A stretch of DNA of 64,000 bases from Escherichia coli. Lineage in GTDB: Bacteria; Pseudomonadota; Gammaproteobacteria; Enterobacterales; Enterobacteriaceae. The stretch lies in assembly GCF_051903065.1 (NCBI RefSeq), contig NZ_CP178438.1. The stretch is one strand, 5' to 3'. Position 1 is the stretch's first letter; every line of letters begins with the position of its first letter. Positions 11,001 through 14,000 of the stretch are shown here, piece after piece. A program made the position numbers.

Positions 11001-14000
11001 TGTTTCTGAACACCTGACCGTATAACAGCGCTCCTTAATTTCTTTGTTAGGGACGTCCAATGCAAGTGATGGCGGCAAACATATCCATCCACTGGATGCT
11101 TACACCTGACAGATGATGGGAATATAAATTGCCACTTAAAATCAGAAATTGCGTAAGGGTATTTTCGCGCGAGCCCTGGCGGGAGACTTGTTTTACCCTC
11201 ACCTTCGCAAAGATCCTTTTCATGAAGATCACGAACCTTTTCAATATGCAATTTAAGGGGTTCAACAAGCTTTTCAGGTAACATCGTGACTCGATCTTTA
11301 CCGCCTTTGCCACGAAATACATAGACATTCCTTGACTCAAAATCGATATCTTTAACTCTTAGCATTAATAGTTCTGCTTTCCTTAGACCACAACCATATA
11401 AAAGCGAAAACATCAGTTTATAGCTACCGGATAGCTGATTGATGATACTCATTGCTTCGTTATGAGATAAGACGGATGGAACCCGTTTAGGTGCGCGTGC
11501 TTTTATCGTATCAGGTAGTAAAGTAAGTTCTCTCTGAAGTATATGTTTATACATGAAGACGATAGCGCAAAGCGCCAAGTTTTGAGTAGACGCCGTAACT
11601 TGTCGGTTTACGGCTAAATATGTCAAAAAATTAGTTACCTCTTGTTCCCCCATGTTCTTAGGATGCTGTTTTTTGTTAAACAAAATGAAGCGTTTTATCC
11701 AAAGTAAATAGGTTTTTTCAGTCTGAATTGAGTAATGCTTGGTTCGCATAACCTGTCTGATGCTTTCAAGGAAAGGTGAACGAGTCATGTAAGCTCCTTT
11801 GTTGATTATCGAGTGTGTTACTGAGACTTCTCAGTAACACCTGATGATAAGGAGGCTAAATCAAGATAAGGCATTGATATTAATAATATTACCCCATTAT
11901 GGGGTGGAGACATTACTGAGAAGTCAGTAATGTCGTAAATTAAAAGTAAATTAAGTCCTTAACTAGCTTCTTAAGTTATTGATCTTCAGTAAACTCATAG
12001 GTATAAATTTGTTTTGCCTTTCGGATGTTACTGAGAGGTCTACATAATAACTGTTAACCTCTGAGGAAGAATTGTGAAACTATCACTAATGGTAGCTATA
12101 TCGAAGAATGGAGTTATCGGGAATGGCCCTGATATTCCATGGAGTGCCAAAGGTGAACAGCTCCTGTTTAAAGCTATTACCTATAACCAATGGCTGTTGG
12201 TTGGACGCAAGACTTTTGAATCAATGGGAGCATTACCCAACCGAAAGTATGCGGTCGTAACACGTTCAAGTTTTACATCTGACAATGAGAACGTATTGAT
12301 CTTTCCATCAATTAAAGATGCTTTAACCAACCTAAAGAAAATAACGGATCATGTCATTGTTTCAGGTGGTGGGGAGATATACAAAAGCCTGATCGATCAA
12401 GTAGATACACTACATATATCTACAATAGACATCGAGCCGGAAGGTGATGTTTACTTTCCTGAAATCCCCAGCAATTTTAGGCCAGTTTTTACCCAAGACT
12501 TCGCCTCTAACATAAATTATAGTTACCAAATCTGGCAAAAGGGTTAACAAGTGGCAGCAACGGATTCGCAAACCTGTCACGCCTTTTGTACCAAAAGCCG
12601 CGCCAGGTTTGCGATCCGCTGTGCCAGGCGTTAAATTGCACAAGGAAGTCATGCGTATAATCCTGCCCATTCTATTAATTATTTCAAGTTTGCCAGCTTC
12701 AGCAATTGTTGTTCGTCACGATGTTACTGACAAAAAATATAATGCTGACGCTACGGATTTTGCACCTTTGGCAACACTTTATGTTGATGGGGCTCATGGC
12801 TCATTAATTAAGCCAGATTGGATTGTAACTGCCGCTCACGCAACTTTCTGCATAAGTCCTGGCAGTTACCTCCGCTTAAATAATGGCTATCACAAAGTTG
12901 AAAGCGTTTTCGTTCATAAAGACTATCAACCCAGTAAAAGTCACGACATCGCTTTAATAAAATTAGTAAATCCAATAAATGATGTAAAACCGGCTAATCT
13001 TTACGAACAAACGAATGAGCTCGCAAAAATAACTTGGTTTATCGGTGTCGGCGGTACTGGAAATGGGCTGACCGGACAAATTGTCGATAACTATGAAAAT
13101 GGTGGGGTTTTACGAAAAGCTCAGAATCAAATCGAACAAGCAGAAGGGCCGCTATTAAAATTTAAATTTGATAGAGATGATGTAGCTTTGCCATTAGAGG
13201 GGGTTTCAGGTAGTGGTGATAGTGGCGGCCCGGCATATTCCACCATTGACGGGACGCATTACTTACTTGGTATTAGCTCAAGAGTTGAAGGTGGGGATAT
13301 CGGGGAATACGGTGTCATGGAAGTGTATTCTAGAGTCTCATTTTTTACGTCTTGGATTGAAAAAATCACTGCAGGTGAAGAAGCTTTGCAGCAGCAATTG
13401 GCATTTCCCAAATTGCAGCGCCTTCCTGCAGGACTCACCGAACAGATTTTACCCCAAGTCTGTGCTGTTATTAGCTTGAAACCAAATGCAGTTTAACAAG
13501 TTTCTTAATTTTGTTCTGGCAATAAACCAGAGCTTATTTTCAGTGAGGTCTTCACTGAATTGGCGCTACCATTTTAAATAGAACATAGGAACTTCTAAAT
13601 GAAATGCATATTTTTGATTTTACTGGTTATAGCCTTTTCAGCTAACGCAATAATCATCAGGCATGATACGTCAGACGAAGATTATCAAAAGTTAGCAAAA
13701 AGCGATAATTCTACTGTTACTTTCTATGGTGTCTATAAAGGCGAAGATATTGTTGCGGGAACCGGAAGTATCATCGCCGACAAATGGATTGTTACTGCTG
13801 CGCACGTTGCTAATTACTTAACTAAAGGTGGCAAAGTTCAATTTAAGGATGCTTTTTATACAATTGAAAAAATTGTAAAGCATCCACTTTGGAAAGATCA
13901 GCAACTACCTAATGATATAGCTCTTGTTAAATTATCTTCTGCTATTGAAAACGCGACAATTGCTAAGTTGAATGACTTACCAAACGAAGCTGGCAAAATT

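Follow-up and report, generated by a model that had tools for sequence, protein, structure and literature searches.

In class 1 integrons, the attI1 site contains, upstream of the simple site with its L and R boxes, two additional core-site-like repeats (DR1 and DR2) that are bound by the cognate integrase, favour attI × attC recombination and are dispensable for attI × attI recombination (PMC12901181, PMC3146285, PMC8946536). Such supplementary sites have been treated as a peculiarity of attI1, and the attIA site of V. cholerae is said to have none (2022 review, PMC8946536). attI sites outside class 1 are poorly defined, and the structural elements of attI2 were still undefined in a 2026 paper (PMC12901181). 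The integron of the SXT/R391 integrative and conjugative elements (ICEs), whose integrase gene is intISXT (formerly intI9), constitutes class 4 (Cambray et al. 2011, PMC3108266). According to the same study, LexA commonly controls the intI promoters of integrons; for the SXT class 4 integrase, loss of the LexA box, and with it of LexA regulation, is reported, whereas related Alteromonadales sequences kept the box. Here, we analysed an integron of this class in a 64,000-nt stretch of an Escherichia coli chromosome (contig NZ_CP178438.1; hereafter, the window). Its attI region contains several copies of the motif TTACTGAGA, which are probably cis-acting binding sites, the likeliest ligand being the integron integrase (IntI) itself, in an attI that would be unusually long (~240 bp).

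The window IntI is essentially identical to the integrase of the dfrA1-carrying integron of SXT-family ICEs. It shares 315 of 320 residues with the product of a gene located between dfrA1 and traF-traH-traG on a V. cholerae contig, and 317 of 320 with copies that lie beside traF-traH-traG, with other cassettes, in further ICE contigs including one of Aliiglaciecola (about 98% identity overall to the SXT-ICE integrase of V. cholerae). Its 90%-identity cluster takes in integrases of V. cholerae O1, Alishewanella, Aliiglaciecola and Rheinheimera. The assignment to class 4 (IntISXT/IntI9) was made against the V. cholerae contig gene, not against the reference protein AAK95987, and the class name follows PMC3108266. 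The element is an SXT-type class 4 integron, carried here by a Tn7-like transposon at the E. coli attTn7 site. The class 2-like framing of the initial annotation, with attI2 of Tn7 as the suggested comparison, had to be abandoned: IntI is only 53.6% identical to IntI2, and attI2 (Tn7, plasmid R721) lacks the TTACTGAGA repeats, having in common with the window attI only the core TAATAA..TG↓TTAACC (the arrow marks the crossover). Integrase identity places the true relatives of this integron among class 4 (IntISXT/IntI9) and the chromosomal integrons of Alteromonadales. The name 'IntIPac' given by UniProt turned out to be a generic annotation label that is applied to unrelated integrases. Relative to the SXT/R391 ICE copies, the window attI is almost base-for-base identical, dfrA1 is also the first cassette in the V. 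cholerae copy, and the LexA box is lost here too. The differences are that the window copy resides in a Tn7-like transposon at attTn7 and not in ICE hotspot 3, that one palindrome is 2 bp shorter, and that the -10 hexamer of the putative cassette promoter (Pc) is TATAAA instead of TATATA.

The region between intI and the dfrA1 cassette is indeed attI, and three copies of the TTACTGAGA core, two of them as perfect palindromes, are present in it as had been noted initially. The reuse of the motif is not random. That is, four of the six exact occurrences of the 9-mer in the 64 kb fall inside 220 bp of this attI. Moreover, if perfect inverted repeats are counted that have arms of 10 nt or more and a spacer no longer than 6 nt, the window contains only five distinct ones, compared with a mean of 0.73 in Markov-simulated windows, and two of these five are the attI palindromes, 94 bp apart and built on one motif. 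The clustering of the 9-mer and the excess of inverted repeats over simulation mean that chance does not explain the repeats. The two palindromes will be named hereafter A (or pal1) and B (or pal2). The centre of pal1, between positions 11827 and 11828, lies ~40 bp from the intI ATG; the initial annotation had placed this palindrome one base too high and with shorter arms than it has (Table 1). Its position and symmetry are kept in the close relatives (loci L003 and L203-L207). The third copy (GTTACTGAGAGG, 12027-12038) lies where it had been placed but is not a solitary half-site: this site C and the adjoining TCTACATAAT make up an imperfect palindrome, GTTACTGAGA-gg-TCTACATAAT, with 5 bp between its right arm and the crossover. 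The crossover itself was positioned with the help of relatives, in which divergence from the window begins exactly after CTGTT(A), at the start of differing first cassettes. The repeats lie 16-238 bp upstream of it, on the intI side. A further palindrome, CCCCATTATGGGG, had been listed alongside the repeats and is present, as a CCCC..GGGG hairpin; it is not part of the conserved design, being lineage-specific (the ICE copies keep the stem with a GTTTT loop, the hairpin is weak in the Alishewanella locus L204 and it is absent from L003).

The similarity of the repeats to the crossover site itself is what points to IntI. The arm adjoining site C carries the attI L box, and its reverse complement is identical to the half-site ATTACTGAGAC at 8 of 11 positions. 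Since each half-site is a near-copy of this arm, IntI is the most likely binder. The L box is a defined IntI-binding position in attI1 (CCCTAAA; PMC12901181), and the window L box occupies the same position relative to G↓TT. Integrase-binding core motifs are GTTRRRY-like, as in GTTACGC and GTTATGG. The attI1 repeat is GTTACGC (PMC3146285); the window half-site likewise begins with GTTAC, and its GTTACTG matches the attI1 repeat at 5 of 7 positions, a comparison that rests on motif sequences quoted in papers, attI1 itself not being present in the window. As with DR1 and DR2, the additional copies beginning with GTTA lie inside attI, on the intI side of the crossover and upstream of the simple site with L and R. 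Site C furthermore matches DR2 in position and orientation, being a direct repeat relative to R and inverted relative to L. There are also clear differences from attI1. The window sites are dyad-symmetric pairs, whereas DR1 and DR2 are single direct repeats; they reach ~230 bp from the crossover (~56 bp in attI1) and are spaced by whole helical turns; and site C abuts the L arm, its attI1 counterpart being ~13 bp away. IntI binding is established for DR1 and DR2 and putative for the window sites.

Table 1. Features of the window attI and its surroundings (window coordinates).
Feature	Position	Strand	Sequence	Remarks
intI	10829..11788	-		319-aa integron integrase, class 4 (IntISXT/IntI9) type; TIGR02249 420.8 bits against a cut-off of 265
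intI Shine-Dalgarno sequence	11794..11799	-	AAGGAG	sequence reading; 5 nt upstream of the ATG at 11788
Palindrome A (pal1)	11815..11840		GTGTTACTGAGA ct TCTCAGTAACAC	arms 11815-11826 and 11829-11840, 12 nt, 100% complementary
IHF-consensus match	11867..11879	-	TATCAATGCCTTA (WATCAANNNNTTR)	exact match, candidate motif; 1.5 bp from A-B midpoint
CCCC-ATTAT-GGGG hairpin	11892..11904	-	CCCCATTATGGGG	terminator-like on the - strand (scan 11905-11891), pointing toward intI
Palindrome B (pal2)	11909..11934		GACATTACTGA gaag TCAGTAATGTC	arms 11909-11919 and 11924-11934, 11 nt, 100% complementary; centre 11921/11922
IHF-consensus-like motif	11972..11984	-	GATCAATAACTTA	one mismatch; 1.5 bp from B-C midpoint; overlaps putative Pc -35 on the + strand
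Putative Pc -35	11979-11984	+	TTGATC	17 bp before TATAAA
Putative Pc -10	12002..12007	+	TATAAA	sequence reading; TATATA in ICE copies
Site C half-site	12027..12037	+	GTTACTGAGAG	left arm of the imperfect palindrome adjoining the crossover
L arm	12038..12048	-	GTCTACATAAT	holds L box ACATAAT (12042-12048); reverse complement ATTATGTAGAC, compared with half-site ATTACTGAGAC
R box	12053..12059	+	GTTAACC	crossover G↓TT at 12053/12054
dfrA1 cassette	12054-12630			first cassette

Relatives were collected by scanning one genome per species, which yielded integrases 73-82% identical to the window IntI in Paraglaciecola, Colwellia, Thalassotalea, Alteromonas and Glaciecola, and by a metagenome scan using the conserved core CATAATAAGCTGTTA, which is independent of the repeats and gave seven more attI sites (IntI 71-77% identical). 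A single layout is common to all ~20 relatives with IntI at least 71% identical (ICE copies, Alishewanella, Paraglaciecola, Colwellia, Glaciecola, Alteromonas and metagenomic contigs). That is, starting from intI, there are two palindromes of TTAC-type half-sites (three in the Alteromonas locus L008), then a single half-site abutting a near-invariant arm, TCTNCATAAT (ATTATGNAGAC on the other strand), and then AAGCTG↓TTA. The L arm is close to invariant in all relatives (ATTATGNA(G/T)A(C/A)). The repeats were present in every related attI examined, so that the objection anticipated in the initial annotation, namely their absence from related sites, does not arise. Outside this clade, TTAC..GTAA palindromes were found in none of the 54 genome-scan loci with IntI less than 65% identical (among genome-scan loci they are confined to the clade at 73% identity or above), nor in attI2. 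The sites are 72-94% identical between loci and the spacers 33-71%, the sites scoring higher in all 11 pairwise comparisons, even where IntI identity falls to 71%. The neighbour of intI on the side away from attI varies between contexts, and the palindromes have stayed intact in the copies transferred to V. cholerae, E. coli and Proteus.

The spacing of the sites is also conserved. Relative to the intI ATG, the centres of A, B and C/L lie at 42, 136 and 252 in the window, at 42, 137 and 254 in the ICE copies and L204, and at 43, 137 and 254 in L003, with no LexA box in any of these. In the Colwellia type, a LexA box at about 27 is followed by A, B and C/L at about 92, 197 and 313, and the four centres of L008 lie at 40, 135, 228 and 343. 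From centre to centre, neighbouring sites are 92-95 or 105-106 bp apart and the last step measures 115-117 bp, which at 10.5 bp per turn comes close to 9, 10 and 11 turns. The two spacers of the window have a direct repeat in common (TAAGGCATTGATATT and TAAGTTATTGATCTT), which suggests that a ~100-bp module was once duplicated.

The shorter palindrome of the window concerns pal2. In the SXT-ICE copies (L203 and L205-L207) pal2 reads GACATTACTGAGA-AG-TCTCAGTAATGTC, with 13-nt arms and a full length of 28 bp, and compared with every one of these copies of the integron the window version lacks 2 bp (TC) at the centre. The deleted TC belonged to a GAGA/TCTC repeat, which is the only reason why pal2 is still a perfect palindrome, now with a 4-nt centre. 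The same deletion occurs in all Tn7-like copies checked, namely two E. coli chromosome records (one of which matches the window) and one Proteus mirabilis record. Comparison of the copies indicates that the window pal2 is the derived form and the 28-bp ICE form the ancestral one, and that the deletion marks the Tn7-like lineage. It constitutes a natural spacing mutant for comparison. The centre dinucleotides also differ between lineages: they are CT in pal1 and AG in pal2 of the window and ICE copies, and are swapped in L204, L003 and Colwellia (A = AG, B = CT), the flanking G/A of the arms being swapped along with them in L204. A site-specific inversion between pal1 and pal2 would leave the centres unexchanged and was rejected as the cause; gene conversion between the palindromes is a possible source.

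The half-sites of one attI change together. Their inner part varies by lineage, and within a given attI all copies share the same version, including the non-palindromic site C, whose partner arm remains unchanged. The inner part is TGAGA in the window, the ICE copies, L204 and most Colwellia, TGAGCC in L009 (in all five half-sites), TAAGAC in L150 and L198, and (T/A)ATGC in the Alteromonas/Glaciecola group. A C-to-T change, from TCTCAG to TCTTAG, recurs in the arms. When site C was compared with the palindrome arms of its own locus across 15 lineages, the score was 66, against 46.4 ± 4.5 after shuffling, and none of 20,000 shuffles reached 66. For the TGAGA group taken by itself, 201 of 20,000 shuffles reached the observed score.

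Candidate motifs for integration host factor (IHF) lie near the midpoints between the sites. A + strand block, TAA-N4-TTGA(A/T), is conserved and matches the IHF consensus on the - strand; most but not all lineages have a match with no or one mismatch within ~1-4 bp of the B-C midpoint, and a match near the A-B midpoint is seen in the lineage of the window (at the same place in L003 and L203-L205). The A-B element of the window is the direct-repeat partner of positions 11972-11986. A role of IHF at these midpoints can be proposed with low confidence, as the TTGA block could equally be the -35 element of Pc. As to transcription, the B-C interval encloses the putative Pc, and site C, L and R lie downstream of it. 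The promoter scan missed the putative Pc -10 because its sixth position is not T. This promoter reads TTGATC-17-TATAAA in the window and TTGATT-17-TATATA in the ICE copies; the -10 of the window is nearer to consensus, and the change may be an up-mutation for dfrA1 expression. The sole promoter-like hit for intI (-35 CTGAGA at 11834-11829, an 18-bp spacer, -10 GATAAT at 11810-11805) overlaps pal1, but is doubtful and was not relied on because its -10 is only 5 nt from the Shine-Dalgarno sequence.

Taken with conservation and L-box similarity, the co-variation of A and B with the crossover-adjacent site favours the suggestion, already made in the initial annotation, that the repeats serve as accessory sites for the integrase. 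The most economical reading would be that A, B and C are accessory IntI sites, a functional counterpart of DR1 and DR2 in attI1, laid out as dyads over ~240 bp. From intI, the layout would consist of palindrome A with its two back-to-back half-sites, ~9 helical turns, palindrome B, ~11 turns containing the probable cassette promoter, and site C abutting the L arm as an imperfect third palindrome, followed after 5 bp by the crossover G↓TT and the R box. IntI dimers would load on A and B. The near-whole-turn spacings and the IHF-like blocks near the midpoints suggest that the sites could be brought together by DNA bending: since they lie on one face of the helix and the spacers are bendable, AT-rich and provided with an IHF-like motif at each midpoint, A and B could fold onto the C/L/R crossover site. 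Such folding would concentrate IntI at the crossover and shape the attI × attC synapse, as DR1 and DR2 do in attI1. Occupancy of pal1 and of C/L/R would probably also damp transcription of intI and/or the cassettes (autoregulation); transcriptional control by the occupied sites is a likely but secondary effect, the promoter positions being weakly supported. IntI is the only protein common to all loci, close relatives and distant clades alike, and a universal host factor is ruled out because the arm sequences are too varied, a lineage-specific one being conceivable but less likely than IntI. Co-evolution between attI and the cognate IntI has been documented (PMC8946536, PMC2095811).

Reuse of a recombinase half-site beside the crossover has parallels in other systems, namely subsites II and III of Tn3/gamma-delta res, and DR1/DR2 of the IRS of Tn4430 and Tn5401, where the recombinase is the tyrosine recombinase TnpI. 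These sites lie in a divergent promoter region, and their occupancy both builds the synaptic complex and represses transcription (Tn3 res, Tn5401 IRS). The analogy is mechanistic only and does not imply membership: res belongs with another recombinase family and IRS with another element type, both serve cointegrate resolution and not cassette capture, and their subsites are contiguous whereas the window spacings are ~100 bp.

Several observations weigh against IntI as the ligand or against the looped arrangement. The half-sites of A and B stand back-to-back with their GTTA ends outward, which is unlike a recombination core site, and we know of no direct precedent for IntI in such an arrangement. 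The inner half-site varies between lineages although the L arm is nearly invariant; IntI, if it binds both, must therefore tolerate or ignore those positions, or use a second determinant. As the lineages are related, the co-variation amounts to a handful of independent changes (perhaps 4-6) and not to 15, and gene conversion between the repeats could mimic it. Few independent indel events underlie the argument from helical phase, and the Tn7-like lineage tolerates the 2-bp deletion in pal2. No IHF-like motif is seen in distant clades, and where it occurs, the motif is AT-rich and shares positions with a plausible -35 element. Finally, the position of the scanned intI promoter leaves the regulatory geometry in the window uncertain.

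The best surviving alternative, though an unlikely one, is that the palindromes serve a dimeric transcription factor distinct from IntI as operators. This factor, of host origin or an unrecognised one encoded by the element, would control the intI promoter (PintI) and/or Pc, and the likeness to the L arm would reflect competition with IntI at the crossover site, or coincidence. Repressor operators typically show perfect dyad symmetry around a centre of 2 bp, the outer arms (TACTG..CAGTA) are similar to those of a LexA box, and pal1 is promoter-proximal, next to the intI start, in a region where the LexA box of the Colwellia type sits ~15 bp nearer to the ATG. In addition, L008 has an extra palindrome beside intI with different arms (TGACTG-N8-CAGTCA). 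This palindrome, TGACTG-AAAATATC-CAGTCA, lies ~30-50 bp upstream of the intI ATG, at the position of pal1 in the window; its arms are unlike those of the A and B palindromes of L008 itself (TTACTATGC), and it may be a different operator. What speaks against operators in general is that the arms vary by lineage, and that those of other clades have nothing in common with them, although in most of the loci examined they follow the sequence of the crossover-adjacent site. If a host factor were the binder, its specificity would have had to shift in step in many genera; moreover, the sites are intact after transfer into three different hosts. Nor is there a conserved neighbour gene or an attI open reading frame able to encode the factor: the only reading frames in attI are 22-36 aa long and lie in the poorly conserved spacers, so that a small regulator encoded within attI was also rejected.

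It is less probable still that the palindromes act as nucleic-acid structures, either as RNA leader hairpins (for stability, translation or termination) or as hairpins and cruciforms in single-stranded or supercoiled DNA, for example during ICE transfer. Single-strand folding of pal1 and pal2 is indeed strong (-10.0 and -10.2 kcal/mol, z = -5.4 and -7.3), arm complementarity is kept while the sequence changes between lineages, and the recurrent TCTCAG to TCTTAG change would give a G-U pair in RNA. Against this, site C co-varies with the palindromes with neither a complementary partner nor a fold of its own (-2.1 kcal/mol, z = -0.3, for the site C stretch), no run of T follows pal1 or pal2, and no Rfam covariance model matched near its gathering score (best hits ~21 bits, E about 0.5, against gathering scores of 66-93); hairpins alone therefore fail as an explanation, and membership of a known RNA family was discarded. 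The terminator scan likewise reported only the non-conserved CCCC..GGGG hairpin, and neither pal1 nor pal2. If the promoters are placed as proposed here, transcription from the putative Pc would start downstream of B and, where a lineage has a LexA box, transcription from PintI would start downstream of both A and B, so that neither mRNA need include them. Conserved helical-turn spacing, moreover, is a property of duplex DNA.

That the palindromes are variant SOS (LexA) boxes is very improbable, even though a palindrome with TACTG/CAGTA outer arms, equal to those of the E. coli LexA box, stands between intI and attI near the intI start, just as a LexA box would at PintI. The spacing, as the initial annotation had pointed out, does not fit: it is CTG-N8-CAG in pal1 and CTG-N6-CAG in the window pal2 instead of the CTG-N10-CAG of the 16-bp LexA palindrome (CTGT-N8-ACAG), which makes it 2-4 bp too short, and the motif is found again 94 and 210 bp farther on, at the crossover. 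Furthermore, true LexA boxes stand alongside the palindromes in L004, L006, L007, L009, L096 and others, Colwellia and Thalassotalea relatives having a canonical CTGTAT..ATACAG box, and the arms of the Glaciecola group contain neither CTG nor CAG. Spacing and coexistence with true boxes together largely refute a LexA box, and the distribution of the latter, absent from the lineage of the window and kept in relatives such as the Colwellia type, is the same as described in PMC3108266. Hardly any weight can be given to the last alternative, functionless leftovers of a past duplication or gene conversion in attI, to which the spacer direct repeat and the pal2 deletion of the Tn7-like lineage would lend themselves, since the sites are consistently better conserved than the spacers, their dyad symmetry is maintained through sequence turnover, and the design recurs in distant clades with unrelated arms.

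These distant clades, at 47-52% IntI identity, have a palindrome 102-106 bp upstream of a crossover-adjacent palindrome, with arms unrelated to TTACTGAGA (e.g. AAACGCGCA and AAAGCGAGC, one palindrome being AAACGCGCA/TGCGCGTTT). The right arm of the crossover-adjacent palindrome ends in TATA, TATT or TAAT, followed by 6 nt and G↓TT. The design was seen in L034, L044, L053, L058, L061, L071, L078 and L079, and the arms of the two palindromes are similar to each other in most of these, L034 excepted. An automated survey of phased palindrome pairs with strict thresholds gave five pairs in distant clades, four of them at 102-113 bp, and one pair in the coding-sequence control; the remaining examples were picked out by eye. 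A palindrome pair at a set distance as a general design of attI across integron clades is suggestive on these data, but not quantified. attI2 of Tn7 (plasmid R721; L209, 1867-2013) has GCACGATTTGTAATAA 102 bp upstream of the L-arm-like GCATGCTTACTAATAA, as well as an inverted pair, ATCGTGCAAGC/GCATGCACGAT.

The region of the window that was tested is 100% identical to the E. coli chromosome NZ_AP045789.1. The Tn7-like transposon is inserted at attTn7, downstream of glmS (~37.5-39.3 kb), with tnsABCDE at ~29.6-37.3 kb, and the integron sits near its other end. The gene order is intI, a 265-bp intergenic region, the dfrA1 cassette and two open reading frames for trypsin-like proteases, followed by a Tn3/blaTEM-1 insertion and resistance modules bounded by IS26. 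The gap between the protease genes (13497-13598) has no recognisable attC, and contains a palindrome, TTCAGTGAGGTCTTCACTGAA, at about 13540-13560; the two may form one cassette, or an attC between them may have decayed. A terminal inverted repeat of Tn3 (GGGGTCTGACGCTCAGTGG; 14489-14552) is inserted ~20 bp past the attC crossover of the third cassette. A copy from cattle E. coli (L211) lacks this Tn3 insertion, and further integron sequence continues there. On the other side, ~345 bp past the stop codon of intI, an IS3-family element (9408-10483) separates the integron from the chromosomal fimbrial gene lpfA2. The Alishewanella chromosomal integron L204, with 92% identity in IntI, has a group II intron reverse transcriptase (RVT_1 and GIIM; 626-1963) among its cassettes, near attI.

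The integron class and the concept of accessory IntI sites were already known. For the class 4 attI repeats, with their dyads, extent, near-whole-turn spacing and co-variation, full-text searches for attI9, attI4 and attISXT found no description; these searches did not cover the original description of class 4, so that the repeats may have been described before. Earlier surveys limited to the ~65 bp next to the crossover would have missed the palindrome design. The class 4 integron spreads dfrA1 in the SXT elements of V. cholerae and in Tn7-like transposons of E. coli and Proteus, and if its palindromes are IntI sites, it would offer a compact test case for attI recognition, for the extent of attI, and for the control of intI and cassettes after loss of LexA. 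A broader and quite tentative proposal is that many marine Gammaproteobacteria chromosomal integrons, and the class 4 integron derived from them, possess a 'complex attI'. In such a site, clade-specific palindromic putative IntI modules, placed upstream of a palindrome adjoining the crossover at distances of whole helical turns (about 94, 105 or 116 bp), would fold into an intasome-like complex, possibly with IHF, that governs cassette capture and, where the LexA box has been lost, replaces SOS control of intI by autoregulation. If this is true, accessory IntI sites can no longer be regarded as a peculiarity of attI1.

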